Shown: one piece after another, positions 1-32,295 of the stretch
How positions within the stretch are numbered: position 1 is the first letter of the stretch
Layout of the letters: each line of letters starts with the position of its first letter
From: Gammaproteobacteria bacterium
GTDB lineage: Bacteria; Pseudomonadota; Gammaproteobacteria; Tethybacterales; Persebacteraceae
Direction of reading: 5' to 3'
DNA: 64,000 nt
Assembly (NCBI GenBank): GCA_965243565.1
Contig: OZ251571.1
Span: 321,523-385,522, forward strand
Made by a program: the position numbers and the translations under genes
Notes under the pieces: model-generated
The model's input: the letters and a program-made list of their open reading frames with translations, nothing else
Told to the model about the DNA's origin: nothing
The model's database searches: none

Positions 1-13
1 GCTAGAAATACCA

Positions 14-931: not shown

Positions 932-1052
932 AACACGAATTATTACCGTGTGGTATGCTATACTATCCATATAAGAAAAGATGTGTAGGTGATGTTGAAA
1001 ATCACAATATAAATATAAACTCTGATTAACAATAAAAAGGGCGGAGGCAAAC

Positions 1053-2402: not shown

Positions 2403-2428
2403 AGAGACTTTATAAGGAGATATAAGTA

Positions 2429-3958: not shown

Positions 3959-3992
3959 TCCATTTTTTAAATTAAAACAGGAATATAAATTA

Positions 3993-5273
3993 ATGAGCAA
4001 AAGCGAAAAGTTGATATTTTGGGTTGCTGAGGGCATTAATGACCGAGTAAGTGACAACAACGATGGCGATGATGTTGACGTTGATGAAACTGTAGAAGAA
4101 CAATCTGAATTTTTTTGGCAATGGGATACTCAAAATAACCTAGAACAAATAAAACGATCAGACTTAAGATTAAACAAAAATACGGAAATACTGAGGATAA
4201 GTTCTGACGACATTCTTTTTAATTCCAAAGTCAGTAAACTTAAAAAGCTGATTGGATCCGAGTTTTATTCGGCTTCTTGGAAGAAAAACAAACTGGTATC
4301 AGGTTTTGTTGCTAGTGATTCTGATGAAACCATAATGGAAAAGGCAACAGTTATACCAGATGGTTTATTGTCGATAGACAAGACAGATGTCCCTGATATA
4401 CAAAATGAGCAGCTTCACGCATTACACGTAATTGTTTGGTATTTTGATAGCAGCACTATTTACATATCTTTATTATTAAATAGTATGCGTCAAGGTGCTC
4501 AGGTTACGGAATGGCGACAAGTGCAGCATACTGCAGCAGTAACTGCTACTAATTCACTTAATGCCTTAGTCGATTCTGCTGTTAAAATCAGTGGTATTGA
4601 AGTATCAAGCATGGTAATTAGCTGTGCTATTATTTATTTTGGGGCAAGTGATACTCACTTTAGTGAAGCGGGTGAGGGATTAAAAGTAATCCATGATCGT
4701 ATAACAGAAGACATTAAAGAATTTGGCTTTGCAAAAGCTTTTATGTCAGAGCCTGAAAGTTTTTTAAACATTTGGGCAAATAATAAATTATGGAAGGCTG
4801 AGTATAAAACCACCAAATATTCTATTTTAAATATACCTCAATCGACGGTAATGACGATTATGATAGCAGGAATGTTCTCTGGGTTTCTCTTTTTTTCTGC
4901 TAATGGTGTAATTTCTTTTTTTGATTATAGGGCCACCAACGAAAAAATTGAAAAGGTGCAAGCAGATGCTCAACGGGAAACAGAAAAACTACTACAGCTG
5001 AGTAGAGAAAACATCCAATTGTATATTTCTCAATATACAATGCGAGCACAAGAGGCTACGAAATTTTCTGAATTGTTGTTTTATAAAGGTTTAGAATACA
5101 CTATAGAAGCAGAAGGTAGTAGGTGGGAGGCAACTTCTGAATTACCCAAGGATATCTCTAAAGTGGAAGAAATTAGAAGCCTATTAGCGAATATTGAAGG
5201 TTGTACAACAGTTTTTGATCAAAATGATAATTTACTAGAGAGTGGTAAGGTGACAATAGTATGCGAATTCTAA
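3993..5273 (+). CDS. Bitopic inner-membrane assembly protein with GspL/BfpC-like topology: acidic cytoplasmic N-domain, single TM, periplasmic coiled-coil.
   Basis: No signal peptide. A single hydrophobic helix 'VMTIMIAGMFSGFLFFSANGVISFF' sits near residue 290. Its position between secretin and ATPase matches L-like partners of GspE-family ATPases. Assignment is by topology and context only. Confidence 0.4.
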   Translation: MSKSEKLIFWVAEGINDRVSDNNDGDDVDVDETVEEQSEFFWQWDTQNNLEQIKRSDLRLNKNTEILRISSDDILFNSKVSKLKKLIGSEFYSASWKKNKLVSGFVASDSDETIMEKATVIPDGLLSIDKTDVPDIQNEQLHALHVIVWYFDSSTIYISLLLNSMRQGAQVTEWRQVQHTAAVTATNSLNALVDSAVKISGIEVSSMVISCAIIYFGASDTHFSEAGEGLKVIHDRITEDIKEFGFAKAFMSEPESFLNIWANNKLWKAEYKTTKYSILNIPQSTVMTIMIAGMFSGFLFFSANGVISFFDYRATNEKIEKVQADAQRETEKLLQLSRENIQLYISQYTMRAQEATKFSELLFYKGLEYTIEAEGSRWEATSELPKDISKVEEIRSLLANIEGCTTVFDQNDNLLESGKVTIVCEF

Positions 5274-5827
5274 GTAAGTGGACAATTATATTATTGATAC
5301 TTCTATTAATGGGTAGCGGGTGGTCGTACTATAAATGGCAAAAACCCAAGAGAATAGAGGCAGAGCAACAGCTTCAAACAGAATATAAAAAATATAAAAG
5401 GCATAAAAGTGTAGCTGAAAGATTTAGTAAAAGCATTGAGTCATCGGAGTTAAATATTGATGAAGATAATAAAAATTACAAAAATTTCAGATTTTCATCA
5501 GAAACAAGTCATTTTGACTTTCGTTTGAAATTGTATGATGCTTTGAATGAAAAAATAAAAGATATTGGCCTTGAAGAATTTAAATTAATAGAAACATCCG
5601 AGCAAGTAGGGTCCCCTAGATCTCAGAATTTACCAAAAATACATAAAACTTATGCGACAGAATACTACTTTTCTATTGAAGGTGAGGCTAGTTATGGACA
5701 AGTAGTTGCTTTTATTTTGAAAAAATTACCAGATTTACCAGTGGCAGTAACTCGAATAAAAAAAGACAAAGAGAAGTTTAAAATTAATTTTGTTGTTTGG
5801 CGAATAGAACAAGATGGTGCAAATTGA
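5261..5827 (+). CDS. Small bitopic protein with an N-terminal TM helix, GspM/PilO-like by topology.
   Basis: 'WTIILLILLLMGSGWSYY' is an N-terminal TM helix followed by a roughly 160-aa periplasmic region. Start and stop overlap the neighbouring genes (4-nt and 14-nt overlaps), indicating translational coupling. Confidence 0.35.
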   Translation: MRILSKWTIILLILLLMGSGWSYYKWQKPKRIEAEQQLQTEYKKYKRHKSVAERFSKSIESSELNIDEDNKNYKNFRFSSETSHFDFRLKLYDALNEKIKDIGLEEFKLIETSEQVGSPRSQNLPKIHKTYATEYYFSIEGEASYGQVVAFILKKLPDLPVAVTRIKKDKEKFKINFVVWRIEQDGAN

Positions 5828-7655
5828 AGCGAAAGATTCAAAGTCTTCAACAGAAATAAGTAAAGAAGTCATCAACTTTTATGTTGATGAAGGTATTCGT
5901 TCTTATATAATAGAAGCAGCAGCCAGACGTGCTTCATGGAAAAAAACAGGTGAAAGAGGGTTTGAAGATACACTTGTAGAAATGCTTGGTGCAGGAGCTT
6001 CTTCTGTTTTAAAAGCCATTGCAAAACGTTGGAGTATTCCTTTTGTAGATGAACTTCAACCACCGGGAGAGTTATTAAGTGTTATAGAAGACTCAAAACT
6101 ATTCAATAAAGATGGTTTTATTTCTATTTATAATGGCGAATACGTGCCATTTCGCACCAACGGCAATACTCTAGATCTTATATGTAGTAGCCGTCGATCG
6201 CGTGATAAAGGAATAAATGACTTTATCCGTTTACGTTTGGTTAACGAAGAGCATATTAATGTTACAACTTCTTTGGCAAGTAAAGCACTTATAACAAAAG
6301 CCTTCCATCTTTATTTTTCAGATGGCTCAAGAGAATTGAACGGTGCATTGCGAAAAATGGAAGCTATGCTTCTTGCAGGGCAAGATTTTTCAGATTACGA
6401 TATAGCCGAAGCGGTGGTTTTTTTGTTTGCAAGAGCGGCTTATTCTGGAGCAAGTGATGCCATGATATTTGTAACAGAAACGTCGGCTCTATACAAACTA
6501 AAAATTTCAGGTGTTGCTCTATTGGCTGCAGAAACTGAACCAGTTGTTTTGGCTGCTATATTAAGAGTACTTGTTAATGTATTTGCGGGTGAAAATGACA
6601 GTTCTTTGGACGAAAGTCCACAAGAAACATTAATTGATTTTAACGATGACCATATGAGCAAAAGTGGTAATATAGACAAACGCTCAAGACTGATGTTAGA
6701 GCGAGCAAAAGGGTTATTAGGAGGTTATCGTTTTCGTTTACAATTAGCAAAGCCACAGCCTAGAACATCGGATGGTGTTTATGCAGTATTTCGTGTCCTT
6801 AAAAAAGAAGCGTCTAACGCATCGCTATCGAAATTAGGCTATGGGAGCAATACGCCACTTTTAAAAACGGCAGTATGTAGAAAAGAAGGGCTAATACTTT
6901 TTGTTGGTACGACTGGTTCTGGTAAAACCACTGGTGCTGACGCAATGGTTGGTGAAGTTGACCCGATTAGACGGTGGGTTTATACAATTGAAAATCCAAT
7001 TGAATTCCAACATCCTTTGTTTATGCAGCATGAGGTTAGAGGGGGAAGCGAAGAATATTTAAAAATTATTAAGTCATTCTTACGATCTAGTCCAGATGTT
7101 TGCTTTTTTGGAGAAACGCGCGAGGCAGAAGTAGCACTTCGCCTTTGTGAGTTAGCCTTAACCGGAAGTTTGGTTATAAGTACCTTACATGCACCCGACG
7201 CAGTGTCTGCCATACAAAGAATGAGAGCGTGGGGCATTGATAACAACAGTATAAGCGAAACATTGATTTTAATTGTTGGTCAACGTTTATTTCCTAGAAT
7301 TTGTGTCCATTGTTCGGAGCCTATTTCTGGAGAGTTCGGTAAAAAAATACATGAATTGGTTAAAAATTTAAGAGATGATTTAAAAGAAATCGTCATGACG
7401 AGTGACGTTGTTAAAAAAGCCAACGAAGAAGGTTGTAAACATTGTTTTTATACTGGGTATAGTGGTCAGTGGTTGGTCTATGAAATGTTGCCTGTTAACG
7501 CTGAGTTACGTGCTAAAATTGTAGCAGGTGACGCGCCTGATCAGATGCGACGATTTTTACATAGAGAACAAGATATGTATATAGGGATTGCAAGAGGCGT
7601 TGGTCATGGTATACTAGATGTTGAAAGTGCGTTACCAGAACTATTAGGAGCTTAA
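5814..7655 (+). CDS. Type II/IV secretion assembly ATPase of the GspE/PilB/TcpT family.
   Basis: Walker A 'GTTGSGKTT', Asp box 'YTIENPIEF', Walker B 'DVCFFGETRE', His box 'LVISTLHAPDA'. Tetracysteine Zn motif 'CVHCSEP...CKHC'. About 350 aa of N-terminal extension precede Walker A. Confidence 0.9.
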   Translation: MVQIEAKDSKSSTEISKEVINFYVDEGIRSYIIEAAARRASWKKTGERGFEDTLVEMLGAGASSVLKAIAKRWSIPFVDELQPPGELLSVIEDSKLFNKDGFISIYNGEYVPFRTNGNTLDLICSSRRSRDKGINDFIRLRLVNEEHINVTTSLASKALITKAFHLYFSDGSRELNGALRKMEAMLLAGQDFSDYDIAEAVVFLFARAAYSGASDAMIFVTETSALYKLKISGVALLAAETEPVVLAAILRVLVNVFAGENDSSLDESPQETLIDFNDDHMSKSGNIDKRSRLMLERAKGLLGGYRFRLQLAKPQPRTSDGVYAVFRVLKKEASNASLSKLGYGSNTPLLKTAVCRKEGLILFVGTTGSGKTTGADAMVGEVDPIRRWVYTIENPIEFQHPLFMQHEVRGGSEEYLKIIKSFLRSSPDVCFFGETREAEVALRLCELALTGSLVISTLHAPDAVSAIQRMRAWGIDNNSISETLILIVGQRLFPRICVHCSEPISGEFGKKIHELVKNLRDDLKEIVMTSDVVKKANEEGCKHCFYTGYSGQWLVYEMLPVNAELRAKIVAGDAPDQMRRFLHREQDMYIGIARGVGHGILDVESALPELLGA

Positions 7656-7662
7656 AAAATAT

Positions 7663-8904
7663 ATGTCTAATCAACGTCCAGGAGTAAAAGGTGACTATTA
7701 TACTTATACCGGAAAAAATTTAGATGGTGAAAAAGAATCAGGTATGGTTTTTGCAACATCGGTTGCCTTGGCTAAGCGATCTGCTGCTAAACGTCTTTTG
7801 TCTGTTCAATCAATATTTAAAGACCCAGTAGCAAATATAGCTTGGAATTTGGGAGATGGTTATTCCAAAGAACAAGTTGCGCGTATGTTTCGTGTTATTG
7901 GAGACAACCTCGAAAGAGGGTCATCTTTGCCCGAAAGCATTTCATTGGCTCGACTGTTTGTAAGCGATCCATATTTACGTTGTGCTTGTTTTAACATACT
8001 AGATCTTATGTCAAGCGGTAAGTCTTTATCGGCTGCTATGGCTGCATCACATTTTAGTGTTGCAGATTGTACTATTGTGGCATCTGTCAGAGGTGGTGGT
8101 GGTGGAGACGCAAATCAAGGAGGCTACGCTAATGCGTTTAGAATTCGTGCGCATGCTTTGGAATTCGAGGCAAAAGGAGAAAAAGAATTAAATCAAGCAT
8201 TAGTTCCATTTATTATCTTTTTGATATTTATTATTGTTATGGTATATATACTGTTGTTTGTAATGGGTAAGCATTCTGGTGATATGTTAAGCGGTGCAAT
8301 ACCCAAGAGAAATCAAATAGGTTTTGTCGGGGGGTATATTAACTTTTTGCAGGATCTCCAAGAAAACATAGGGCTATATACTACTATATATTTTACGTTT
8401 GGAGCGGGGATTATTTTCCCTTTATTTGTAAAGCAACTGCGTTATAAAATGATATCATTCGCTTTTCCATCATTTTCAAAATTTAAATTAGAGCTAGATC
8501 AATACAAGACTTGGCAATTATGGCAGTTACTTCGAATTTCAGGTGTGGATAATGTCCGTATTTTTGCATTAACAGCTAAAATTGTTGATAACCCACTAAT
8601 AATGCAGCAAAATAAAGCGATAATGGAGCAAACCAGACGAGGAAGAGGGCTTGCTGTAATCGTTCGAGATGTGATAAAATCAGCACGATTAAGAGAGCAG
8701 CTAACCTCCGTTCTTGAAGGAAAGTCAGCAGACAAAGGCATGGATATAGTATTATCATTACTACAATTACAAGTAAACGAATACAAAAATAGAGCAGTCT
8801 TATTATTTGGTGGTATGACAAAAGGTATTGTCGCACTTGCTCTGGTTAGTATGATGCTAATGATTATTGGGCCCTCTTTTATGCTAATGGCCAATATAAA
8901 TTAA
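7663..8904 (+). CDS. Inner-membrane platform protein of the GspF/PilC/TcpE family.
   Basis: 413 aa. Three predicted TM segments ('LVPFIIFLIFIIVMVYILLFV', 'LYTTIYFTFGAGIIFPLFV', 'IVALALVSMMLMIIGPSFMLMA') separated by cytoplasmic domains. It sits directly after the ATPase. Confidence 0.7.
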   Translation: MSNQRPGVKGDYYTYTGKNLDGEKESGMVFATSVALAKRSAAKRLLSVQSIFKDPVANIAWNLGDGYSKEQVARMFRVIGDNLERGSSLPESISLARLFVSDPYLRCACFNILDLMSSGKSLSAAMAASHFSVADCTIVASVRGGGGGDANQGGYANAFRIRAHALEFEAKGEKELNQALVPFIIFLIFIIVMVYILLFVMGKHSGDMLSGAIPKRNQIGFVGGYINFLQDLQENIGLYTTIYFTFGAGIIFPLFVKQLRYKMISFAFPSFSKFKLELDQYKTWQLWQLLRISGVDNVRIFALTAKIVDNPLIMQQNKAIMEQTRRGRGLAVIVRDVIKSARLREQLTSVLEGKSADKGMDIVLSLLQLQVNEYKNRAVLLFGGMTKGIVALALVSMMLMIIGPSFMLMANIN

Positions 8905-8950
8905 AGAATTTTTAATAAAACAAAAACTATAAAAAAAAAAGGAGAAAATA

Positions 8951-9517
8951 ATGAAAATTATAAATAAAATAAGCATAATCAAAGGTCGCTTGCGTCAAGT
9001 AGGTTTTACACTGGTGGAACTTGCTTTGGTGGTTGCTGCTTTGGCGATTATTTCAGTTAGTGCTATTGTTGTAAGTGATAGTGTGTTAAGCAATGCACGT
9101 TCATCGTCAATGATTAGTCAAATTAACACAGTACAGACATCTGCCGAATTGGCAAGAGTACATACCAGTTGTAGGGCTTTAAAATTGAATTTCTTAGTAA
9201 CTGATGCAAACGCTGCCGATAATTCATGTGGTAAAGCCAACCTTGCAGGCTGGGAAGGTCCATATATAAGGAATGCAATTATTTTGACTACTGGTATAAT
9301 GAGTCTTGAGACTGTAGCCGCTGGTGCGGAGATGGAAATGAAAGTGGTAGGTGGGATTGCAATTCTTGAGGTGGAAGCAGGCTCAAATGACGTTTTAGAT
9401 GGCATAGTGGCTAGCGTTTGTCCAGATAATCTAGCAGCTTCCTCTCTGGCTAATATTAGTGCTACGAAAACTTGTTTTAGTACCGGTAGTGTAGTAAATC
9501 TCTATATGTCTCAATAA
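8951..9517 (+). CDS. Major type IV prepilin.
   Basis: Leader 'MKIINKISIIKGRLRQVG' followed by 'FTLVELALVVAALAII' gives Gly-1, Phe+1 and Glu+5. Four Cys residues allow two disulfides including a C-terminal D-region pair. Strong SD 'AAGGAG' 7 nt upstream. Hairpin terminator downstream. Confidence 0.8.
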   Translation: MKIINKISIIKGRLRQVGFTLVELALVVAALAIISVSAIVVSDSVLSNARSSSMISQINTVQTSAELARVHTSCRALKLNFLVTDANAADNSCGKANLAGWEGPYIRNAIILTTGIMSLETVAAGAEMEMKVVGGIAILEVEAGSNDVLDGIVASVCPDNLAASSLANISATKTCFSTGSVVNLYMSQ

Positions 9518-9565
9518 TGGTATCTGATTTGTAATTTTACTAAAACAATATTCATTAAAATTTGG

Positions 9566-9600
9566 TTTAGAAGTATTTTTTAATACTTCTAAACTTTTTT
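9566..9600 (+). terminator. Rho-independent terminator/attenuator after the major pilin gene.
   Basis: Perfect 12-bp inverted repeat tttagaagtatt / aatacttctaaa (9566-9577 / 9582-9593) with a 4-nt loop, followed by TTTTTT at 9595-9600. The stem is AU-rich. Confidence 0.45.
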
Positions 9601-9613
9601 AACAGATAAAGCA

Positions 9614-10522
9614 ATGAAATTTAAGCAAAAAGGTGTAACACTGGTTGAACTTTCTTTGGGGCTAGTTGCAACAGCTGTAATTGTGGGGGCGTTATTCCCA
9701 CAATTAGCGCTTGTATTTAGACATATTGAAAGCATACACAACGATAAATTTACGTCACATATTCGTCAAATACTTGTAGAATTTTACCGAAGAAATCCAG
9801 AGGATTTTGTTTCTAATGGAGCTCCCGCTGCCACAGTAGTGGATGTTGTTGATATTAATGAGTTTGCAACAGGAGCATTGGATGATGTCAGTGTTGATTT
9901 TAATAATGAAACATGGCATTATGTGGCTTGCTCAACAAGTGGTCAAATTACGGTACAGCCAGGGGGCGTTCTTAATTTCTGTGATATCATAGGCTACCGT
10001 AACGATGCTCCTCTTACTCTTAATTTAAACAATCGAAATTTGAATTTTTGGAATGGTCTAGTAAACGACGATACAATTGAGAGATTCGAAATAATTTCTG
10101 GACGTTCAATTATTCAAGATCAAATCGACATTACCCGACAGCGTGTAGAAAGGGTGAGAGAGAATTTAGAACAACACGCGGACACACTATTTCGCACAGC
10201 AAAACAAAGAGCATATAGAGTAAATCGTTATGTGGACCATTCAGTAGAAGATACTTATAAAACCAATTATGACTATGATGGTCGAGCAATTTTTGATCGA
10301 AGTCCCGCTATTAATCATGGCGAACGAGCGGCGCTTGGCTTTAATACTAATGATCTTATAACTCCCTTATCAACTGATCTTATTCAAATTGATAATACAT
10401 CAGCAAATATAAGATCGAATGATCATGGGCATGACCCTCCATATACTGCAGAAGTTTTTGTTATTATAAATGCGGGTGGTCTTGCTATCAGAGTGAGTAG
10501 TTTAGCAGTCACAAAAAACTAG
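9614..10522 (+). CDS. Large minor pilin-like protein, paralog 1 of 3.
   Basis: Prepilin N-terminus 'MKFKQKG|VTLVEL' with Glu+5. 302 aa. Shares the Cys-pair block 'W.YV.CS....FCDI.GYRN' and the C-terminal 'DLITP...IDNT...PYTAEVFV' block with the ORFs at 10602 and 13106. Confidence 0.7.
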   Translation: MKFKQKGVTLVELSLGLVATAVIVGALFPQLALVFRHIESIHNDKFTSHIRQILVEFYRRNPEDFVSNGAPAATVVDVVDINEFATGALDDVSVDFNNETWHYVACSTSGQITVQPGGVLNFCDIIGYRNDAPLTLNLNNRNLNFWNGLVNDDTIERFEIISGRSIIQDQIDITRQRVERVRENLEQHADTLFRTAKQRAYRVNRYVDHSVEDTYKTNYDYDGRAIFDRSPAINHGERAALGFNTNDLITPLSTDLIQIDNTSANIRSNDHGHDPPYTAEVFVIINAGGLAIRVSSLAVTKN

Positions 10523-10601
10523 CTAAAAAAATAGGTAATTATTGATAAATTACATATAATAGTACTTAAAAGATACAAATCTAAATATTAATTTATTAAC
10601 A

Positions 10602-11528
10602 ATGAAAATTCAGATTAAAAATCAAAGAGGTGTAACACTGGTTGAAATAGCCATATCTATTGTGCTATTATCTGTGCTTATAACTGTGCTGTTTAATGCG
10701 CTGGGTAATGCAATAGGAAGTATTCAGTATATTAAAAACGAAAAATTTTCACAACATATGCAAAAAACGGTTCTTGAATATTACAAACAAAATGTTTCAG
10801 ATCCTGCTGTAAATCCGCGGACGAGTCAATTCATGGTTGGTGCAGGTAACCCTGCGCCAGTACACATACCTGCAGCTGCTATAAATCCATTTTCATCTGG
10901 CGTTGTTACAGATGTTGCTATTGATTTTAATAACAATAGATGGTGGTATGTGAACTGCTCGTTTAATAATCCTAATAACGTTATAGCAGTAGGGGAGCAA
11001 AATTGGCGCTTTTGTGACATAGTTGCTTACAGAAATGAGAATCAATTGCCTGTAGCCGATTTAGTAATGACAAATATTGCGTTTTGGAATAATAGATTAA
11101 ATGCCAATGTAATTGATGACTACATTATTATATCTGGTAGTAATGTAGTACATGAGGCTGTTTCACAAACACGCAAATCTGTTAAGAGAGTTCGTGATTT
11201 ATTAGAAAATTATTACGTGCTACTTGTTTCGCATACAGAAGAACAACCTTATTTTATTAATCGATTTGCAGGTCATGATGGTTTTAATAAGCAAAGTCAA
11301 ACTTCATATGATGTACGATCGGCATTAAATTCAGACAATGTACTAGATAATAATGAATTATCTGCTATAGGTCTTGTGCCTAATGACTTAATAACACCGT
11401 TCGGAAGCATACAAATTGATAACACAAATAACAATAGGTTCCCTTATACAGCACAGGTGTTTGTTAATTTTCAAGATGTTAATGCGGACACTCTTAAAAT
11501 CAGTACACTTGCTGTTTCTAAACTTTAA
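10602..11528 (+). CDS. Large minor pilin-like protein, paralog 2 of 3.
   Basis: 'MKIQIKNQRG|VTLVEI' with Glu+5. 308 aa. Conserved blocks 'WWYVNCS...RFCDIVAYRN' and 'NDLITPFGSIQIDNT...PYTAQVFV'. Confidence 0.7.
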   Translation: MKIQIKNQRGVTLVEIAISIVLLSVLITVLFNALGNAIGSIQYIKNEKFSQHMQKTVLEYYKQNVSDPAVNPRTSQFMVGAGNPAPVHIPAAAINPFSSGVVTDVAIDFNNNRWWYVNCSFNNPNNVIAVGEQNWRFCDIVAYRNENQLPVADLVMTNIAFWNNRLNANVIDDYIIISGSNVVHEAVSQTRKSVKRVRDLLENYYVLLVSHTEEQPYFINRFAGHDGFNKQSQTSYDVRSALNSDNVLDNNELSAIGLVPNDLITPFGSIQIDNTNNNRFPYTAQVFVNFQDVNADTLKISTLAVSKL

Positions 11529-11540
11529 TAGGAAAAAATT

Positions 11541-12215
11541 ATGAAAAAAAACATTATAAAATTAATAAGTATTGGCTTGGTTTTTTCTGCACAGGTACAT
11601 GCAGAAGAAGTTGATTTATTTGATTACTGCAAGCAAATGGCAAAAGGATTCGCGATATTAGAGGTTAAAACTCAATTAAACTCAAAAGATGATTTAAATA
11701 CCTGCCGTCAATATATTGCTGAATTAGGAGAATTACGTAAACAATTTATCGTCATTGAAGAGTTCGATAGTTTGATTGATGAAGAGGAAGCCGAAGAAGC
11801 AATAGTTGAAGAAGATTATGTCACAGTTGATGATGCTATTTTACTAATACAGAATGAAATAAATAGTCTAAAATCTAAAATTGATAAAGATATAAGCAAG
11901 CAATTAGAAAAAATTAAAAGTGAGCAGCAACCAATTATTACTAATATTGAACAAAATCCAAATGTATCGCCTGTTGAAGAGCAAAAGCAACGGACAGTAG
12001 CAATACAACAACCTAAATCGTTTGAAATGGTTACATTCGTTGGACAGTTGCGTCAAGGGGGAGAGGATAAATACATAATCCAGGTGGATGGCAACCTAAT
12101 CCAATTAACTGAACAAGAAATGTACAAAGGATTTGCTTTTACAAAACAAGGTGACAATTATTATTTGGGAGATATAAAAGTGGCGGATAATCTAGAAACA
12201 TTGGAATCTAACTAA
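11541..12215 (+). CDS. Secreted periplasmic protein of unknown function, paralogous to the ORF at 14153.
   Basis: Signal peptide 'MKKNIIKLISIGLVFSAQVHA'. Conserved 'YC...C..Y.AEL.ELR' block, an acidic coiled linker, and a C-terminal 'YIIQVDGNLIQLTEQEMYKG' block shared with the 14153 ORF. Confidence 0.5.
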   Translation: MKKNIIKLISIGLVFSAQVHAEEVDLFDYCKQMAKGFAILEVKTQLNSKDDLNTCRQYIAELGELRKQFIVIEEFDSLIDEEEAEEAIVEEDYVTVDDAILLIQNEINSLKSKIDKDISKQLEKIKSEQQPIITNIEQNPNVSPVEEQKQRTVAIQQPKSFEMVTFVGQLRQGGEDKYIIQVDGNLIQLTEQEMYKGFAFTKQGDNYYLGDIKVADNLETLESN

Positions 12216-12267
12216 ATATTAGATTGTAGTTTAATGCGACATTATCATTTCATTCAGGAAGCGATTA

Positions 12268-13131
12268 GTGATTAATTCTAGGAGACACAATTATAACTAT
12301 GTACATAGTCAAAAAGGATTGGCATTATTATCGCTGATTCTTTTATTGGGTATAGTTTTAGGTGTAGCGTTGGTTGCATTTTATAATGTAATCGCAGAAG
12401 AGCGTTTAGCACTCCAAAATAATACCACTGATGAAAAATTACAAACTGTAGTTGATGACACAGAGGCTTATTATAGGCATAATCCTGATTTCACTGCACC
12501 CGGTTTTGCAGCTAATGTCTGTTCTTTTGCACTGGCAGTTAGTCCTCCGTTTGGATGTGCATTATCGCCGACTCAATTTTGGGGACGAGAAGGCGAGGTT
12601 ACATTTTTTAATATCCTTATTTTTGAACCTAATGCTGATCTTGCTGATAATGCAACGGTGCCAGTGGCTGCGATTAATGGAGAACAGATACAGTTAAACG
12701 CACAGCGAAATCTAAGAGAGCAACTTCGTAGAATCGTCTCAGTCATAGAAATAAACCATCAGCAAATGCACCAAATCAATGCTGGTGGTCATGCAGATAC
12801 TGGTGTTAATTTGTATTGTTTGAATGGGAACTCTCAAATAGGTCTATTGGGGTGTGAAAGCGATTGGACACCCCTACCTGCTGCTTTCTTAAGTGCGTAC
12901 TTAGCACCAGGAGATCAGGTATCTCCGTTCGGTACTCCTATTGTATACCAGACAGCAGGGACTGTCACCTTAACTGATGTCATTGACAACTATACAATCA
13001 GACCGAATGATTCTTATGATGTTGTGGCAGCCGTAGTTTCTGCAACTACACCTTGGGATAATAATGGGGTGGCTTTTCGAGAATGGGCTGTGGCACTAAA
13101 GGGAAATGCATACCATGATCTCGCGCAATAA
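12268..13131 (+). CDS. Pilin-like protein lacking Glu5, GspK/PilX-like in that respect.
   Basis: Basic leader ending 'SQKG', then the hydrophobic helix 'LALLSLILLLGIVLGVALVAF' with Ser rather than Glu at +5. 287 aa. Embedded among the other pilin-like genes. Confidence 0.4.
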   Translation: MINSRRHNYNYVHSQKGLALLSLILLLGIVLGVALVAFYNVIAEERLALQNNTTDEKLQTVVDDTEAYYRHNPDFTAPGFAANVCSFALAVSPPFGCALSPTQFWGREGEVTFFNILIFEPNADLADNATVPVAAINGEQIQLNAQRNLREQLRRIVSVIEINHQQMHQINAGGHADTGVNLYCLNGNSQIGLLGCESDWTPLPAAFLSAYLAPGDQVSPFGTPIVYQTAGTVTLTDVIDNYTIRPNDSYDVVAAVVSATTPWDNNGVAFREWAVALKGNAYHDLAQ

Positions 13132-14107
13132 AGGTATTACGCTTATAGAAATGGCAATAACTATTGCCGTACTTACTGTTTTAACTGGCGCAGTATTAGT
13201 GTCAGTGCCATTTGATTTGTTAAGTAATCTTCGTCAAAAAAATCATAAAGATTCTGTTGGTATTGTTTTGGATGCCTACTATCAAGTAAATATTGGAAAT
13301 TTAGTTTTTCCCACTGCTGCGGACGTGATTCTAACTACTATTAGTTTTGATGAGATAGAAGCCATTGGGAGGAATCTTAAACTTAATCAAGAAATAAATT
13401 TTAGTCAAGATTCTGGTGGGAGAAATTGGTTTTATGCGCAATGTTCAACATCAGGATTTTTGGATCATGCTGACATCTTTGTTTCTATAGATTCTTCCAC
13501 TAAAATATCATATTGTGGTCTTGTTGCTTATACAACGGGTGAAGCGGGGGCACCACTTGCGAATGATGTTATTAAAAACAAAACTATAGCAGATTGGCAA
13601 AATGCAACAGTGAATCCAGCAATCGAAGATTATGTTATTGTCGAAGGTCGAAGAGGTGTGAGTGCTGAAATAAACAAAACATCTGATAAATTAAATGCAG
13701 TTGTAACAGCATTTGAAGAGTACTATAGACTTTTAGATTCGAATGACCCTGTCGCAGGTATCGCAATTAATCGATTTTCTCATACACCATCACAGAATTA
13801 TGATTTACAGAGAAGAACGATTGATAAAATATCAATTTTACGCAATACTGAAGTAAAAGCTAATGATGATCATTTACTTACACGAAGTTATCAGGCTATA
13901 ATGAAAATTTCAGACGAGACTCTTAATACAGGGTTTGGCGAAATACAATTTGATAATGGCTCCACCAGCATACGAACATCTTCTCACACAACACCGGCTT
14001 ATAAGGTGTACCAAGGACCACCCTATACAGTTGAGTTATGGGTAGAGTTATCCGGGAATGGTGCTATAATGCGGAAGACGGCATCATCTAAAATTTACGG
14101 GTATTAA
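13106..14107 (+). CDS. Large minor pilin-like protein, paralog 3 of 3.
   Basis: 'MISRNKG|ITLIEM' with Glu+5; the start is probably the ATG at 13115. Conserved 'NWFYAQCSTSGF...SYCGLVAY' and 'GFGEIQFDNGSTSIRTS...PPYTVELWV' blocks. Confidence 0.7.
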   Translation: MHTMISRNKGITLIEMAITIAVLTVLTGAVLVSVPFDLLSNLRQKNHKDSVGIVLDAYYQVNIGNLVFPTAADVILTTISFDEIEAIGRNLKLNQEINFSQDSGGRNWFYAQCSTSGFLDHADIFVSIDSSTKISYCGLVAYTTGEAGAPLANDVIKNKTIADWQNATVNPAIEDYVIVEGRRGVSAEINKTSDKLNAVVTAFEEYYRLLDSNDPVAGIAINRFSHTPSQNYDLQRRTIDKISILRNTEVKANDDHLLTRSYQAIMKISDETLNTGFGEIQFDNGSTSIRTSSHTTPAYKVYQGPPYTVELWVELSGNGAIMRKTASSKIYGY

Positions 14108-14152
14108 TGGTATTAATACAATAAAAAATACAAATTTTAAAGGGGTTTTACT

Positions 14153-14872
14153 TTGAATAAATTAAAATTAATAGTTTTATTTTCTTTGCTATTAACAGGC
14201 TCTGTACAAGCAGAGAGTATTGATATCGAAGTATTATCAGTAGAGTACTGTAAAAAATTTCGTGAGGGAGCAACCGTTAATGTTGATAACAATATTCCTG
14301 ATCCAAGTAGTGGCAAAACAGAAATGGCTACAAGTTTTGACGTTACCATCTCTGAAATGGTTAAATGTAAAAAATACTTTGCCAATCTTACCGAACTTAG
14401 GCAGACAATACAGGATGTTAATAGTGATACTGACACAGAATTAGGACGAACTGACGATGTTTTACAAAATAATAATGTTATTTCGCTAGAAAGTTTCAAA
14501 GAAGAAATGGCGTACGAACTTGCTTTATTTGAGGAAAAATATTTTTCGCAAAAGAAAATCGAAATAGAAAATTATGTGCAAAAAATTAACTACGAAGCGC
14601 GTCAGTTAGCGCGTAACAGCAATACCGTTAGAAATACCGTCACTGCGGCCGTTAATCAAACAGCTGATGTTGCCAGCAACAGAGTGCAAACAAAAAAAGA
14701 AGCACCACTATTCTTATTACAAGGGACTTTTCGTCAAAGTGGTACTGAATACTATATCATTAAGAGCTTTGATCAATTGATAACCTTAAAAGAGGGTGAT
14801 TCTTTTAAGGGGAAAAAATTACTTAAAAACCCAAAAGGTCTATATTTTGATGATTATCGTATCATTCAATAA
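14153..14872 (+). CDS. Secreted periplasmic protein, paralog of the 11541 ORF.
   Basis: Signal peptide 'MNKLKLIVLFSLLLTGSVQA'. Shared Cys-pair and C-terminal 'YYIIKSFDQLITLKEGDSFKG' blocks. Confidence 0.5.
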   Translation: MNKLKLIVLFSLLLTGSVQAESIDIEVLSVEYCKKFREGATVNVDNNIPDPSSGKTEMATSFDVTISEMVKCKKYFANLTELRQTIQDVNSDTDTELGRTDDVLQNNNVISLESFKEEMAYELALFEEKYFSQKKIEIENYVQKINYEARQLARNSNTVRNTVTAAVNQTADVASNRVQTKKEAPLFLLQGTFRQSGTEYYIIKSFDQLITLKEGDSFKGKKLLKNPKGLYFDDYRIIQ

Positions 14873-14903
14873 AGTATAATTCATTTTTTTTAGGACTTTA
14901 TTT

Positions 14904-16082
14904 ATGGTAAATATTTTTAGGACTGCTTTAGTGACGGTCCTGATTTGCGCAACATCATCTGCGGCATGGAAAATGGGAATGCAAGATCCTGCCAGCGAAA
15001 TGGCAACCATTCAACGTGAAATTAATACTTTTATGATGTGGATAGTGGTGGCGATAGGCATTGTTGTCTTTGGTGCGATGTTCTATTCTATTCTGTATCA
15101 TCGTAAAAGCAAAAACTACAAAGCGGCTAATTTTCATGAGAATACATTGGTTGAGATAATTTGGACTACGGTGCCAATGTTAATAATTATTGGTATGGCT
15201 TATCCGGCAACTACTGCTATTATTAAATACAAAGACACCAGTTCGCCTGACATTAGCATTAAAGCAACGGGTTATCAGTGGAAATGGTCGTATGATTATT
15301 TACAAGAGGGTATTTCGTTTTATAGCCAGTTGTCCACTAAACCAGAAGAAATTGGTGGAAAATATTACAATTCTGATGCAAAAGCCAGTCCCAAGTCTGA
15401 AAACTATTTGCTAGAGGTTGATAAAGAATTGGTTGTGCCTGTGGGTAAAAAAATACGCTTATTATTAACAGCAGCAGATGTTATTCATGCATGGTGGGTG
15501 CCACAGTTGGGAGTTAAACAAGACGCTATTCCTGGTTTGGTGCGTGATGCATGGTTTATGGCAGATAAAGAGGGGGTTTATCGTGGTCAATGCGCTGAGC
15601 TTTGTGGTAAAAACCATGGGTTTATGCCTATTGTTGTTAGAGCCGTTAGCGAAGAAGATTACAATGCTTGGGTAAAAAGAAACGGTGGTAATATTACCGA
15701 TAAATCAACCACCAGTAATGATCCAACTTTTGTTGCAGATGCTGGTACGGCTGCTGCAATACAGCCAACTGTTGCCACTGAATGGACTATGAAAACTGCC
15801 ATGGCTAAAGGTGAAATGGCTTATGCTACTTATTGTGGTGCTTGTCATCAGGCCAATGGTGAAGGTTTATTGCCTACTTTTCCTGCACTTAAAGGCTCTG
15901 CTGTTGCAGTAGGAGATATTGCCGCCCATATAGATATTGTTGTGAACGGTAAGGCCGGTACAGCAATGGCAGCATTTAATTATCTTTCTGATGAAGATAT
16001 TGCCGCAATTATTACTTACGAACGAAATGCTTGGGGCAACAGTACAGGTGATTTAATATCCGTTGATGATATTAAAAAATAA
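14904..16082 (+). CDS. coxB: Cytochrome c oxidase subunit II (CuA type) with a fused C-terminal monoheme cytochrome c domain.
   Basis: Two N-terminal TM helices. COX2 CuA signature 'VIHAWWVPQLG...(33)...CAELCGKNHGFM'. C-terminal heme-binding motif 'CGACH'. Confidence 0.85.
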   Translation: MVNIFRTALVTVLICATSSAAWKMGMQDPASEMATIQREINTFMMWIVVAIGIVVFGAMFYSILYHRKSKNYKAANFHENTLVEIIWTTVPMLIIIGMAYPATTAIIKYKDTSSPDISIKATGYQWKWSYDYLQEGISFYSQLSTKPEEIGGKYYNSDAKASPKSENYLLEVDKELVVPVGKKIRLLLTAADVIHAWWVPQLGVKQDAIPGLVRDAWFMADKEGVYRGQCAELCGKNHGFMPIVVRAVSEEDYNAWVKRNGGNITDKSTTSNDPTFVADAGTAAAIQPTVATEWTMKTAMAKGEMAYATYCGACHQANGEGLLPTFPALKGSAVAVGDIAAHIDIVVNGKAGTAMAAFNYLSDEDIAAIITYERNAWGNSTGDLISVDDIKK

Positions 16083-16111
16083 TCGTTAATCCTTGCCAAT
16101 AATTTTTAATA

Positions 16112-17578
16112 ATGTCAATCAACACAAGTTTATTAGAGTTCGGTGCACTTGTTGGCAATAAAAAATGGCTAGTTTCGCAAGATCAGCAAGAATCATTTAC
16201 AAATAAATTAGCTGTCAATAATCCGTCAACAGGCGATTTACTGATGTATGTTCCATTGTTAGGAGCAGAAGAAGCAGAGCAATGTGTTAATGTGGCAAGT
16301 GCTGCACTGGTATTATGGCGCAAAAAAACAGCCAAAGAACGGGCTGTCATTCTTATGCGATGGGCGTCATTAATGGTAGAGCATAGTGAAGAACTGGCAA
16401 ACATAATGACGTTGGAGCAAGGAAAACCAATAGCAGAAGCACGGGGAGAGATTGCTTATGCGGCTTCATTTTTGCAATGGTTTGCTGAAGAAGGAAAACG
16501 CAGTTCTGGTGAAATTTTGCCTGCGTTTAAACCAAATTCTCAAGTACAGGTAACCCGCGAGCCTATCGGTGTTGCCTCAATTATTACGCCGTGGAACTTT
16601 CCTGTTGCTATGATCACACGTAAGTTGGGAGCAGCATTGGCAGCCGGATGTACCGCTGTTATTAAACCATCTGAATTAACACCATTGTCGGCATTGGCAA
16701 CTATAAATCTGGGGTTAAAAGCAGGGTTGAGTGATGGTGTTGTCAATATTATTATGGGAGATGCCCCTGCTATTGGTAGAGTTTGGTGTGCTCACCCCAG
16801 TGTGCGGGTTTTATCGTTTACAGGATCGACATCTACTGGAAAATACTTGGCAGAGGCTTGTGCTCCGACTATTAAAAGAATGAGTTTAGAATTAGGCGGT
16901 AATGCTTCTTTTATTGTATTTGACGATGCTGATATCGACTTGGCTGTACAACAAGCGATGTTTTCAAAATTTAGAAACGCAGGTCAAACTTGCGTTTGTG
17001 CTAATCGATTTTATGTGCAAGCTGGTGTTTATGATGTTTTTGTCGAAAAATTTAAAATCGCGATTGAAACTTTAAAAGTGGGAGATGGTTTAAATCCAAC
17101 GGTAACCATAGGACCATTAATTAATGAAGCAGCGGTTCATAAAGCACAGCTGCATGTAGATGATGCTGTTGCCAAAGGTGCAACATTGGTTATTGGTGGG
17201 CAGAGTTTGGGGGGTAATTTTTATACACCTACTTTATTGACTGAAATGACGGATGATATGCTGCCTAGCCATGAGGAAAGTTTTGCCCCTATCGCACCAA
17301 TTTATCGCTTTTGTGATGAGGCCGAAGTTATTGCCCGTGCCAATAATACCGAATACGGTTTGTCATCTTATTTTTGCAGTCAAGATTTAGGGAGAGTAAT
17401 GCGTGTGTCAGAAGCATTAGAAGCGGGCATAATAGGCGTTAACGAAGGTATTATTTCTGCGGAAAGTGTTCCTTTTGGTGGCGTTAAAATGTCTGGTTTG
17501 GGGCGTGAAGGATCTCATCAGGGTATGGAAGAATACACCGAAATAAAATACACACTCATTGGATATCCCAGCCAGTAA
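16112..17578 (+). CDS. gabD: NAD(P)-dependent succinate-semialdehyde dehydrogenase.
   Basis: ALDH motifs 'ELGGNA' and 'FRNAGQTCVCANR'. The 'LMTLEQGKPIAEARGEIAYAASFLQWFAEEGKR' block is GabD-like. Confidence 0.8.
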   Translation: MSINTSLLEFGALVGNKKWLVSQDQQESFTNKLAVNNPSTGDLLMYVPLLGAEEAEQCVNVASAALVLWRKKTAKERAVILMRWASLMVEHSEELANIMTLEQGKPIAEARGEIAYAASFLQWFAEEGKRSSGEILPAFKPNSQVQVTREPIGVASIITPWNFPVAMITRKLGAALAAGCTAVIKPSELTPLSALATINLGLKAGLSDGVVNIIMGDAPAIGRVWCAHPSVRVLSFTGSTSTGKYLAEACAPTIKRMSLELGGNASFIVFDDADIDLAVQQAMFSKFRNAGQTCVCANRFYVQAGVYDVFVEKFKIAIETLKVGDGLNPTVTIGPLINEAAVHKAQLHVDDAVAKGATLVIGGQSLGGNFYTPTLLTEMTDDMLPSHEESFAPIAPIYRFCDEAEVIARANNTEYGLSSYFCSQDLGRVMRVSEALEAGIIGVNEGIISAESVPFGGVKMSGLGREGSHQGMEEYTEIKYTLIGYPSQ

Positions 17579-17784
17579 AAAAATACCATAGAGGATTTTT
17601 CTTTATTTTCTAGAGTAGAGCGCTATAAGAAAACGAGATAAAATATTGATAAAATACAGTAATGTCAATATAAAATCATTTTTTACATTATTTGCTATGC
17701 TTTCATTTTCAAATAAGTTATTAGATAGGCAATGATTTTTAGAGTGAAAAAGCATATAATATATTGATTGTAAAATAGAATATT

Positions 17785-19656
17785 ATGAAAGACAGTAAAC
17801 ATTTATATATTGATTACTTTAATTTAAAAGAACCACCTTTTAAGATAACGCCAACCACGAGCTATTTTTATGGCGGTGGAAAAAGAGGAGAAATTTTACA
17901 CGCATTGTTATATGCCATTAATTCTGGTGAGGGGATTATGTTGCTAACTGGTGAGGTGGGTAGTGGCAAAACCATGATACTTAGAACACTCGTGGATCAG
18001 CTAAGCGAAAAAACAGATATTATTTATATTGCCAATCCCAGTTTGTCCGGTAGTGAAATTTTATACAATATATGTGAAGAGTTAGGATTACAATCTGAAG
18101 AAAAAAAGCCCGATACTGTTCGTATATTACAAAACCACTTGATTCAAAGGCACCAAGAGGGTTATCGTGTGGTTGCTTTTATTGATGAAGCACAAGCAAT
18201 GCCGGATGAATCACTTGAAGAGATTCGATTATTGTCTAATTTGGAAACAAGTCGTGATAAATTATTACAAATTGTATTGTTTGGACAACCAGAACTAGAA
18301 GAAAAACTGTCAAAACAACATTTGCGACAATTGCGCGAACGTATCACGGTGGCGCTTAAAATAAAACCATTTACCAAAGAGGATATAAAAGAATATATAT
18401 CAACGCGTTTGCATGCCGCTGGACACGATGGCAAACAATTATTTACCAATGACGCGTATCGAATCATCTTTGCTGTTTCGAAAGGTATTTCTCGTCGAAT
18501 TAATGTATTGGCGGATAAAACGTTACTATCAGCGTTTGCCCGTGGCTCACTCATTGCAGAAAAAATTGATGCCAAGATGGCTGCACGTGATGTGAGTTAT
18601 GGCAAGCTCTTGTATCGGTCGGAACAAAACCGTCTTTTTTCTAAATTTATTACCATTGGTTGTACGGTAGGGTGTTTATTAATTATTACCGTATTTTCGT
18701 TTATTTATTTTGGTGAACAGGTCACAGCATCATTTGCTGAAGAGCCAGTGGCAGACAAACCCGTACAGAGTAAAGTCGTAAAAAAAGATACAGTAATACA
18801 AAACACCATTGAAATCGCACTGAATGAAATTATTAATGCCCAAGAAAAACAGTCTGAGCTTGAAGTAGCAGTTGTTATTGAAGAGGAATCCGAGCCAGTT
18901 ATACAACCCGATGTAGAGGTGGTAATTGTTGAGGAATCCGAGCCAGTTATACAACCCGATGTAGAGGTGGTAATTGAAGAGGAATCCGAGCCAGTTATAC
19001 AACCCGATGTAGAGGTGGTAATTGTTGAGGAACAACCTAAAGTAGTTTCTAAGAAAGTTGAATCTGTTAAACAGCAAACCAAACCGGTAAATATTGGTAA
19101 ACAAATGTCTCAAACTATTGTACAGTTACAACAACAAAAAGAGGTTGCTTTAAGTGGAGAACAACTAGCACTTGAGATTTCCAAACATGCCGAAGAACAC
19201 ACGGATGGACCTCAAGTAGAAGGTGGACAAACGGAATGGCAAATAGTTGTTAAAAAGAAAACAACTGAATCATTGGGTATTGTAGAAAATAGTCAGTGGG
19301 ATTGGATGCCTGCATCAAGTTATTTGCGTAGCCGCTTGAACGCAACGCAAACATGGATAAAAAACAACCCTGACCAGCAGCAATATACCTCACGACTAAT
19401 AACGGTGTCGCAAGAGCGCGCTATATTTTTAGAAAAATTCCTTCGTTACTTTGCCGATTATTACCCTATTCGCAATGTATTGGTTTATCCCATCCAATTA
19501 AAAAGTGGTAAGAAATTCGTTGTCAATTTTGGTGTTTATCCATCGCAAAGTGATGCTGAAGTTTTTATTAATAATATCCCCCGTTATTTTACGGGTGGCG
19601 AGCCTTATGCTCAAGAAATTAGTTCTATTGTAAAAGAATCACAGGATTTATGGTAA
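17785..19656 (+). CDS. ExeA/GspA/MshM-family AAA+ ATPase with a TM segment and a periplasmic C-terminal SPOR-like domain.
   Basis: AAA_22-type Walker A 'LLTGEVGSGKTMILRTL'. TM helix 'FITIGCTVGCLLIITVFSFIYFG'. C-terminal 'VVNFGVYPSQSDAEVFINNIP' resembles a SPOR fold. The periplasmic linker contains an acidic tandem repeat. Confidence 0.75.
   Translation: MKDSKHLYIDYFNLKEPPFKITPTTSYFYGGGKRGEILHALLYAINSGEGIMLLTGEVGSGKTMILRTLVDQLSEKTDIIYIANPSLSGSEILYNICEELGLQSEEKKPDTVRILQNHLIQRHQEGYRVVAFIDEAQAMPDESLEEIRLLSNLETSRDKLLQIVLFGQPELEEKLSKQHLRQLRERITVALKIKPFTKEDIKEYISTRLHAAGHDGKQLFTNDAYRIIFAVSKGISRRINVLADKTLLSAFARGSLIAEKIDAKMAARDVSYGKLLYRSEQNRLFSKFITIGCTVGCLLIITVFSFIYFGEQVTASFAEEPVADKPVQSKVVKKDTVIQNTIEIALNEIINAQEKQSELEVAVVIEEESEPVIQPDVEVVIVEESEPVIQPDVEVVIEEESEPVIQPDVEVVIVEEQPKVVSKKVESVKQQTKPVNIGKQMSQTIVQLQQQKEVALSGEQLALEISKHAEEHTDGPQVEGGQTEWQIVVKKKTTESLGIVENSQWDWMPASSYLRSRLNATQTWIKNNPDQQQYTSRLITVSQERAIFLEKFLRYFADYYPIRNVLVYPIQLKSGKKFVVNFGVYPSQSDAEVFINNIPRYFTGGEPYAQEISSIVKESQDLW
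18880..19032 (+). repeat. In-frame tandem repeat of about 45-51 nt, three copies, encoding '(E)EESEPVIQPDVEVVI(V)', inside the ExeA-like gene.
   Basis: The unit 'gaggaatccgagccagttatacaacccgatgtagaggtggtaatt' is directly repeated three times, with gaa/gtt insertions between copies. Confidence 0.8.
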
Positions 19657-19683
19657 CCCCTAAAAGGATTAACTAAAAACTAT

Positions 19684-25696: not shown

Positions 25697-25717
25697 CAAA
25701 GGGTACGTTGGAATAAT

Positions 25718-25818
25718 GCAAGATAAGCGGGTTATGGTCGCACTGACAGAGGGCAATTAGGGCTGCTTCCTTCCAGACCTGACCCGGTTTTCGCCATACC
25801 ATGCAACTAAACCCGCAA
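25718..25818 (-). ncRNA. ffs: Signal recognition particle 4.5S RNA (ffs).
   Basis: The minus-strand sequence 'CCGGGUCAGGUCUGGAAGGAAGCAGCC' matches the universally conserved SRP domain IV. The 5' arm 'GCGGGUUUAGUUGCAUGGUAUGGC' pairs with the 3' arm 'GCGACCAUAACCCGC'. A TATAAT -10 box lies about 7 nt upstream. Confidence 0.8.
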
Positions 25819-32294: not shown

Positions 32295-32295
32295 A

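Follow-up and report, generated by a model that had tools for sequence, protein, structure and literature searches.

Minor pilins govern the start, the adhesion target and the retraction of type IV pili, and the tip architecture is understood in few cases, namely TcpB/CofB trimers and the GspHIJK-like sets that work with PilY1. We analysed a 64,000-nucleotide stretch of a gammaproteobacterial genome (contig OZ251571.1, positions 321,523 to 385,522; hereafter the window), in which a type IV pilus operon encodes four large pilin-like proteins, called A1, A2, A3 and C here, and two further proteins, B1 and B2, whose genes follow A genes. Our reading, to which we assign a probability of about 0.62, is that A1, A2, A3 and C belong together in one undescribed type IV pilin-like family, whose large members (~250-350 aa) act as minor pilins priming the pilus tip, and that B is a partner of A.

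In most type II secretion (T2S) and type IVa systems, and also in the type IVb system of enteropathogenic Escherichia coli, a single minor pilin lacks the glutamate at mature position +5 (Glu5), and this lack is counted among the proposed signatures of the first subunit of a filament, which has no preceding N-terminus to neutralise (Ng et al., PMC5207764). A second tip design is the CofB/TcpB homotrimer (PMC7248040). TcpB and CofB (PMC5207764; PMC9565799) are minor pilins of large size and initiate assembly, the role proposed here for A and C; as at our locus, their genes come after that of the major pilin, and the operon includes a TcpQ-like gene and a lipoprotein secretin. The two accounts also describe a secreted partner of the minor pilin (TcpF, CofJ), with which B can be compared, and present the toxin-coregulated pilus (TCP) as being, like the window, without a retraction ATPase, its retraction being triggered by Glu5 of the bulky minor pilin. 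No similarity to the C-terminal domains of TcpB/CofB was found in sequence or in structure.

PilV of plasmid R64 (IncI) is likewise a large minor pilin of a plasmid-borne type IV pilus tied to conjugation genes. Profile comparison aligned the N-terminal helix alone (hhalign probability 25%) and found the R64 major pilin, PilS, unrelated to the 188-aa pilin of the window; homology to either R64 protein was rejected. In R64, a transglycosylase and a peptidase lie between pilS and pilV, whereas the operon of the present family has a Glu5-less paralog and PilT, and no shufflon-like or recombination repeats were found at window positions 8900-14950. The original prediction regarded ~300 aa as an unusual size for minor pilins, which does not hold, as a TcpB construct spans residues 25-423 (PMC5207764) and R64 PilV has 474 aa. 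Likeness to the mannose-sensitive haemagglutinin (MSHA) pilus is seen in the window secretin, which scores best against MshL, and in a related locus (L095) whose assembly ATPase carries an MshEN domain, but all of these scores lie below the family cut-offs, the MSHA minor pilin models are unmatched and a TcpQ-like gene is present in the window.

In their proposed function the A and C proteins are minor pilins, a known kind, and membership of the GspK, TcpB/CofB and PilV groups failed on sequence and on specific fold. The novelty lies in a family that recurs without having been curated, in which a Glu5-minus and a Glu5-plus paralog form a fixed pair and are joined by a partner protein, and in its operon type, of which the literature searches made here found no description. 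Also new is the expansion of this A/C/B module in the PilT-less operon of the window, with a partial parallel in metagenome sample SRR28167755.

Four pilin-like paralogs and two partner proteins

The genes at issue occupy the 3′ half of the operon:

8951-9517, + strand: 188-aa prepilin with an 18-aa leader (G/FTLVE) and N_methyl motif, probable major pilin
9564-9600, + strand: terminator-like hairpin (consensus scan) between the 188-aa pilin gene and A1, an AU-rich perfect 14-bp stem followed by T6
9614-10522, + strand: A1, 302-aa Glu5 pilin-like protein, A subfamily
10602-11528, + strand: A2, 308-aa Glu5 pilin-like protein, closest paralog of A1 (35% identity)
11541-12215, + strand: B1, 224-aa protein with Sec signal peptide, paralog of B2
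12268-13131, + strand: C, 287-aa pilin-like protein with Ser at +5, divergent paralog of the A proteins
13106-14107, + strand: A3, 333-aa Glu5 pilin-like protein, its start overlapping the end of C by 26 nt
14153-14872, + strand: B2, 239-aa protein with signal peptide, gene after A3, paralog of B1

In translation, A1, A2, A3 and C each have a short basic leader ending in Gly (marked by a slash) and then a hydrophobic helix of ~20 residues, which qualifies as a class III signal peptide. The leaders read MKFKQKG/VTLVE in A1, MKIQIKNQRG/VTLVE in A2, MHTMISRNKG/ITLIE in A3 and ...HSQKG/LALLS in C, so that Glu at mature position +5 is present in the three A proteins and replaced by Ser in C. The original prediction, which had named these four open reading frames (ORFs), their leaders, the Glu at +5 in those starting at 9614, 10602 and 13106 and the pilin-like helix with Ser at +5 in that starting at 12268, is thus borne out by the translations. 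It had further proposed that the three A proteins are paralogs beyond the N-terminal helix with a large conserved globular part, and BLASTP agrees, as alignments run over the full length for A1-A2 (35% identity, E 2e-57), A1-A3 (23%, E 8e-18) and A2-A3 (25%, E 6e-17), a similarity far beyond chance. Both blocks that it pointed out can be seen in the alignment, a Cys-pair block of the form W-x-Y-x-x-C-S ... [FY]-C-x-[IL]-[IV]-[GA]-Y and, where it had given 'IDNT...PYTA[EQ]VFV', a C-terminal block of the form I-Q-[IF]-D-N ... P-Y-T-[AV]-[EQ]-[VL]-[FW]-V. It had missed C as a family member, the paralogy of B1 and B2 within the repeated unit, and the hairpin that follows 8951-9517.

C was not significantly similar to A1 in BLASTP, and its relationship to the A proteins emerges from profiles. 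A 15-sequence family profile aligned to C residues 11-166 in hhalign (probability 88%, E 3e-6), and a profile-profile comparison of a 7-sequence C alignment with a 9-sequence A alignment gave a probability of 98.7% and E 3.4e-16 over 236 columns. The aligned span takes in a YY..N motif ending helix 1, a second helix with G-x-x-V...E-x-Y and the C-terminal D-N...P-[YF]-[ST]. In the same way, a hidden Markov model of C-type proteins matched every A-type at E 1e-5 to 3e-28 and only 2 of 11 major pilins, at E 2e-4 or weaker. By these profile alignments C is a fourth, divergent member of the A family, with homology extending past the N-terminal helix. Judged by sequence, the family comprises two conserved subfamilies, A with Glu5 and C with the pilin leader and helix and never Glu5.

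In A1-A3 the N-terminal methylation motif is all that Pfam and NCBIfam detect, and C has no match in either; against N_methyl and TIGR02532, A2 scores above both cut-offs, A3 above that of Pfam and slightly under that of NCBIfam, and A1 under both. The T2SSK/GspK models matched neither C nor the A proteins even at permissive E-values. C does lack Glu5 and, with 287 aa against 188 aa, is larger than the major pilin, as GspK is, and the tip-most, GspK-like role is plausible for it.

AlphaFold2 models were obtained for A1 from a 9-sequence alignment (predicted local distance difference test, pLDDT, 70.9; predicted template-modelling score, pTM, 0.66) and for A3 from 22 sequences (pLDDT 80.5, pTM 0.76; the five models span 76.6-80.5). 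Both show an N-terminal helix of ~50 residues followed by a beta-hairpin region with the Cys pair, then a second helix of ~32 residues starting from an invariant Gly (A3 residues 181-213), and, after a lower-confidence stretch of ~60-90 residues, a C-terminal hairpin past the PPYT motif. Besides the long second helix, the A models have ~90 more residues between strand groups. The models thus predict, with moderate confidence, a pilin-like core fold in which a long alpha-1 helix packs on an antiparallel beta-sheet. Foldseek returned no match below E = 1 in the PDB, and sequence and profile searches of the PDB with A and B were empty; the fold comparison with GspK, TcpB, CofB and PilY1, which the original prediction had proposed, gave no specific similarity.

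B1 and B2 (E 2e-10 to each other) both start with a Sec-type signal peptide, have two conserved Cys and a coiled linker of acidic character, and carry the family motif G..R.GG...yii....l.L.eG..ykG in a small domain at the C-terminus. B2 is also weakly similar (E 2e-6) to the gene that follows the A-type gene of a related locus (L006). No relatives of B were found in Pfam, NCBIfam, the PDB or PHROG. A likeness of the C-terminal motif to PilP or to the HR domain of GspC had been suspected, and Pfam searches with the isolated segments gave it no support.

The probable major pilin is set apart from the genes 3′ of it by a strong ribosome-binding site and the terminator-like hairpin. An AAGGAG ribosome-binding site lies 5′ of its gene, and the RNA fold of 9564-9600 has -20.4 kcal/mol (z -4.25; 0 of 200 shuffles as stable). 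Together these give the pattern expected of a highly expressed major pilin with attenuated read-through into the minor pilin genes, and the hairpin may work by attenuation to fix how much major pilin is made relative to minor pilin. The 188-aa pilin and its positional counterpart in L006 are 33% identical (E 2e-26).

Occurrence in other replicons and history of the expansion

We scanned 1.84 billion cluster representatives exhaustively with HMMER, using a profile built from the globular domain of A1-A3. At an E-value threshold of 1e-3 there were 22 matching proteins, three of them the window's own and three close relatives (P0004-P0006, E 1e-41 to 1e-48). Two, P0007 and P0013, were rejected as repeat-protein artefacts, and the remaining matches are pilin-like, ~290-346 aa if complete, and match the C-terminal half. 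The public names of family members ('type II secretion system protein', 'prepilin-type N-terminal cleavage/methylation domain-containing protein', 'Tfp pilus assembly protein PilE', 'hypothetical protein') derive from the N-terminal motif only, and a modest practical gain of the present work would be a family definition to replace labels such as the first and last of these. Word-indexed protein searches returned little beyond the query (with A1, A1 itself only), although a globular-only profile recovered seven proteins this way, and a full-length family profile was swamped by generic pilin N-termini. With the paralog alignment, a scan of genome contigs had no match and missed even the source genome; scans of metagenome contigs and a tblastn search of plasmids with A1 were empty as well. 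All ten window proteins checked were singletons at 90% identity, and for HslU the highest identity to the species representatives within reach of a scan was 58%.

A common gene order was present in 10 of the 11 related loci in which the region is complete, on plasmids, in metagenome-assembled genomes (MAGs) and in metagenomes. It runs from a TcpQ-like protein, where present (L004 and L010, at the position of window 1053-2402), through a secretin, a 395-476 aa protein (620 aa in L098), a 135-180 aa protein, a T2SSE ATPase, a T2SSF platform, the pilin, C, usually PilT, and A, to, usually, B. Loci with this order include:

L004, L007, L008, L095: metagenome contigs
L009: GCA_053469775.1, Gammaproteobacteria MAG
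L010: Limnohabitans sp. TEGF004 plasmid pTEGF4
L097: Robbsia andropogonis plasmid p3
L098: Variovorax sp. SRS16 plasmid 2

The order pilin-C-(PilT)-A is found in L004, L006-L010, L095, L097 and L098 and is split over L012/L013, with one pilin of 182-226 aa at the position of the window's 188-aa pilin, C-types of 251-317 aa and A-types of 288-346 aa. A gene in the B position follows A in L004, L007-L010, L097 and L098, mostly with an N-terminal signal-like segment, and L095 ends at A. Thus the large pilin-like proteins are encoded with a secretin, a GspE-type ATPase and a GspF-type platform in the window and in the related loci alike, and the expectation that homologs co-occur with this cluster type is upheld. 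The A/C/B module, which has no curated family model past the N-terminal motif and no solved relative, recurs in fixed order on Burkholderiales plasmids, MAGs and metagenome contigs.

The difference at +5 is kept outside the window. Among A-types there, G/xxxxE is found in 11 of 12, that of L006 being offset by one residue, while in the ten C-types that include the N-terminus, the window's C counted in, the residue at +5 is S, W, S, A, S, W, L, W, A or V and never Glu (that of L095 being taken by alignment from a truncated gene call). Like C of the window, the other nine C-types are larger than the major pilin and without Glu5. C has 32% identity (E 2.6e-26) to the gene 5′ of P0006, and the overlap of the C stop with the A3 start is also found in L013 and, between C and the A-type P0005, in L006.

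Outside the window, most copies of the operon are plasmid-borne or surrounded by many mobile-element and defence genes. In two loci it stands beside conjugation or Dot/Icm-family genes: the Limnohabitans cluster (L010) is inside a conjugation module with type IV coupling protein, relaxase, TrbM/KikA and StbB genes, and that of L007 has genes of the DotI/IcmL and DotH/IcmK families as neighbours. Other loci are set among genes of toxin-antitoxin, Fic, NERD and defence-like types.

Gene order and similarity together suggest how the window came by its extra copies. L006 reads ATPase-platform-pilin-C (G/FAILS)-A (P0005)-B and has no PilT. P0004 and P0006 come from one sample, SRR28167755, with window-like GC of 0.39-0.40, on separate short contigs, one running from a pilin C-terminus through P0004 into a B1-like signal peptide and the other from a C-type gene through P0006 into a B2-like signal peptide. 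In the BLAST matrix, A1 and A2 group with P0004 (~150-160 bits) and A3 groups with P0006 (~155 bits) and P0005 (110-138 bits), and from this grouping and the gene orders of L006 and SRR28167755 we take C-A3-B2 to be the ancestral unit. The window has no PilT and an additional A1-A2-B1 block. An extra A-B unit after the major pilin was probably acquired before the lineages of the window and of the SRR28167755 source split, and A1/A2, at 35% identity, reads as a further, old tandem duplication. The A-B unit would thus have been duplicated and its A duplicated again, placing A1-A2-B1 ahead of the ancestral C-A3-B2, and the operon-internal PilT would have been lost in the window genome, which is small (source contig 1.68 Mb); the pilus may consequently carry alternative or additional tip subunits. 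The idea of a triplicated class, with which the analysis began, does not describe the family, as the conserved unit elsewhere is one Glu5-less C, one Glu5 A and usually B, and the triplication is lineage-specific.

Some related loci differ in ways that touch the module. In L094 (2-1560), two major-pilin-like paralogs precede PilT, the upstream truncated copy reading FTLLK, which places Lys at +5 if it is in register with G/FTLLE of the other paralog; a gene at first taken for its C-type is in fact the second of these major-pilin-like genes, and a prepilin peptidase gene stands right after B. In L001/L002 (GCA_021801065.1, 1319-5066), the P0012 subgroup, genes for a thioredoxin/DsbA-like protein, an unassigned protein of 349 aa, a protein with GGDEF and another T2SSE ATPase come after the A-type gene, and this GGDEF gene and the MshEN domain of L095 are a hint of cyclic di-GMP control in that branch. 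Two or three extra large genes (~290-700 aa), unannotated, follow B in L004 (11891-16055), L007 (11705-16538), L010 (15931-19110) and L097 (14122-17671); both of those checked in L004 have signal peptides, and the window has no counterpart. These genes of the PilT-bearing relatives may encode additional tip or adhesin components.

A putative priming tip and competing explanations

The priming-tip reading builds on homology, on conservation of the operon and on a moderately confident pilin-like core fold with no specific known relative, all of which are established above. A and C would be low-abundance minor pilins assembled first in the inner membrane, where they would prime the filament. C would stand at the very apex, since the first subunit needs no Glu5, and A, which has Glu5, would dock beneath C and recruit or link to the major pilin. 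Because A and C are paralogs with a common second helix and C-terminal motif, the tip would probably be a pseudo-symmetric hetero-oligomer; such an A/C tip would be a third design besides the GspI-J-K-type complex and the CofB/TcpB homotrimer and, if true, a third solution to pilus priming. An adhesin array formed by these proteins is possible. B would be a periplasmic or secreted partner specific to the neighbouring A: the two travel and were duplicated together, the P0004 contig running into a B1-like and the P0006 contig into a B2-like signal peptide, and this placement and joint duplication favour a specific partnership over a generic machine part. In it, B might be a chaperone, might associate with the tip, or might be secreted and relate to A much as TcpF does to TcpB.

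Several points weigh on the other side. GspK is encoded last among the minor pilin genes and C first. C may not be universal, given the second major-pilin-like gene in the C slot of L094. The matching of B in distant loci is mainly positional, with clear common motifs only in the window, L006 and L009. The scan of window ORFs brought up no prepilin peptidase, so that processing depends on a gene elsewhere in the genome.

More tentatively, the operon could represent a distinct, unnamed type IV pilus subclass whose tip is made of the large C/A paralog pair with a dedicated B, in contrast to the four small pilins of GspHIJK type and to a TcpB-type homotrimer, a plasmid-type system that turned chromosomal and lost PilT. 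On that account the multiplication of A and B may have produced alternative tips with different binding specificities, and the bulky Glu5-bearing A may insert in the growing fibre and bring about retraction without an ATPase, as described for TcpB. As the window combines the absence of PilT with extra Glu5 A subunits, a TcpB-like Glu5-triggered retraction is conceivable, by way of speculation. The PilT-less, A/B-expanded window is in this respect a natural contrast to its PilT-bearing relatives, for both minor-pilin-driven retraction and tip diversification.

It is unlikely that A1, A2, A3 and C make up one fixed four-member tip complex, like GspH-I-J-K or FimU-PilV-W-X, and not alternative tips. 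Three Glu5 proteins and one without Glu5 are indeed the canonical core minor-pilin count (PMC5207764, PMC7248040), and the four genes lie in one co-directional block. However, a single C and a single A suffice in the more distant relatives, and in SRR28167755 the A1/A2-type and A3-type genes sit on separate contigs, which argues that the extra copies are lineage-specific and not an ancestral four-part set; moreover, A1, A2, A3 and C share one fold as paralogs, unlike GspH, I, J and K, which differ in structure from one another.

Still less probable is an exporter of the T2S kind or like TCP or colonization factor antigen III (CFA-III), in which A and C would form a short pseudopilin piston and B1 and B2 would be cargo docking on the cognate A as TcpF does on TcpB. 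In favour, public annotation of the family includes 'type II secretion system protein', a Sec signal peptide is present in B, whose gene always follows an A gene, and no PilT-like ATPase was found among the window ORFs scanned, a lack shared with T2S systems and TCP. Yet those public names rest on the N-terminal motif only, most related operons hold a bona fide PilT-family ATPase (in L010, 358 bits where the cut-off is 319), as retractile surface pili typically do, and GspC, GspL and GspM went undetected in Pfam/NCBIfam scans. The plasmid conjugation module around L010 and the DotI/IcmL and DotH/IcmK neighbours of L007 fit a mating or adhesion pilus. It is very improbable that A1-A3 serve as alternative major pilins and that each builds a thicker filament of its own.

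The upstream machine and other genes of the window

The co-directional genes form a single run on the + strand at 1053-14872, and the proposal that the pilin-like genes are set in a type IV pilus operon is supported by the secretin, ATPase, platform and pilin encoded upstream of them. Its first six genes are:

1053-2402, + strand: TcpQ-like protein, pilus operon gene 1, with weak C-terminal resemblance to TcpQ
2429-3958, + strand: outer-membrane secretin with lipoprotein-type signal (LISGC), Pfam Secretin E 1.2e-17
3993-5273, + strand: conserved machine component of ~400 aa, no Pfam/NCBIfam match
5261-5827, + strand: conserved small component (~175-188 aa) with N-terminal hydrophobic segment, no significant family match
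5814-7655, + strand: pilus assembly ATPase of the GspE/PilB superfamily with long N-terminal extension, Pfam T2SSE E 1.4e-48
7663-8904, + strand: inner-membrane platform of the GspF/PilC family, Pfam T2SSF E 4.4e-7

The Pfam match of the first protein to TcpQ (E 6.8e-4) is under the cut-off, as are the top NCBIfam scores of the secretin, to MshL (92.7 bits) and then to type IVb PilN (57.9 bits). The counterparts of 3993-5273, matched by position alone, are family-less genes for 395-476 aa proteins in L004, L007-L010 and L097, and tblastn of this 426-aa component against plasmids gave no match; the position of 5261-5827 is taken in the same loci by a gene for 155-180 aa. For the window ATPase, the plasmid matches with the best E-values (Variovorax, Limnohabitans) come from clusters with an A-family gene. 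G+C is 0.33-0.39 over 1-20000, which covers the operon and its flanks, against ~0.37-0.43, mostly near 0.40, over 20000-64000, and this low value would fit relaxed constraint or a foreign origin. Near the operon there is neither an integrase nor a tRNA gene, and the whole window is free of tRNA genes.

Immediately after the operon, a lone gene at 14904-16082 encodes subunit II of cytochrome c oxidase, to whose C-terminus a cytochrome c domain is fused; what comes next is not subunit I but a 488-aa ORF that reads like an aldehyde dehydrogenase. A 623-aa protein with an ExeA/MshM-like AAA ATPase N-terminus is encoded 3 kb downstream of the operon, at 17785-19656, and scores 223 bits against the XrtA/PEP-CTERM-associated ATPase model, under its cut-off of 324.5. 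Within its gene, at 18883-19032, a 48-nt tandem repeat in 3.1 copies encodes acidic ESEPVIQPDVEVVIVEE units. Farther along, a 496-aa N6/N4 DNA methylase ORF (32212-33702) lies between the genes for the large (29373-32294) and small (33762-34856) ribonucleotide reductase subunits and overlaps the end of the former by 83 nt. On the - strand, a small signal recognition particle RNA (25723-25817, 58.6 bits) overlaps the first 34 nt of the TTG-start dnaX ORF (24113-25756), and the true dnaX start is probably further downstream than the TTG listed.

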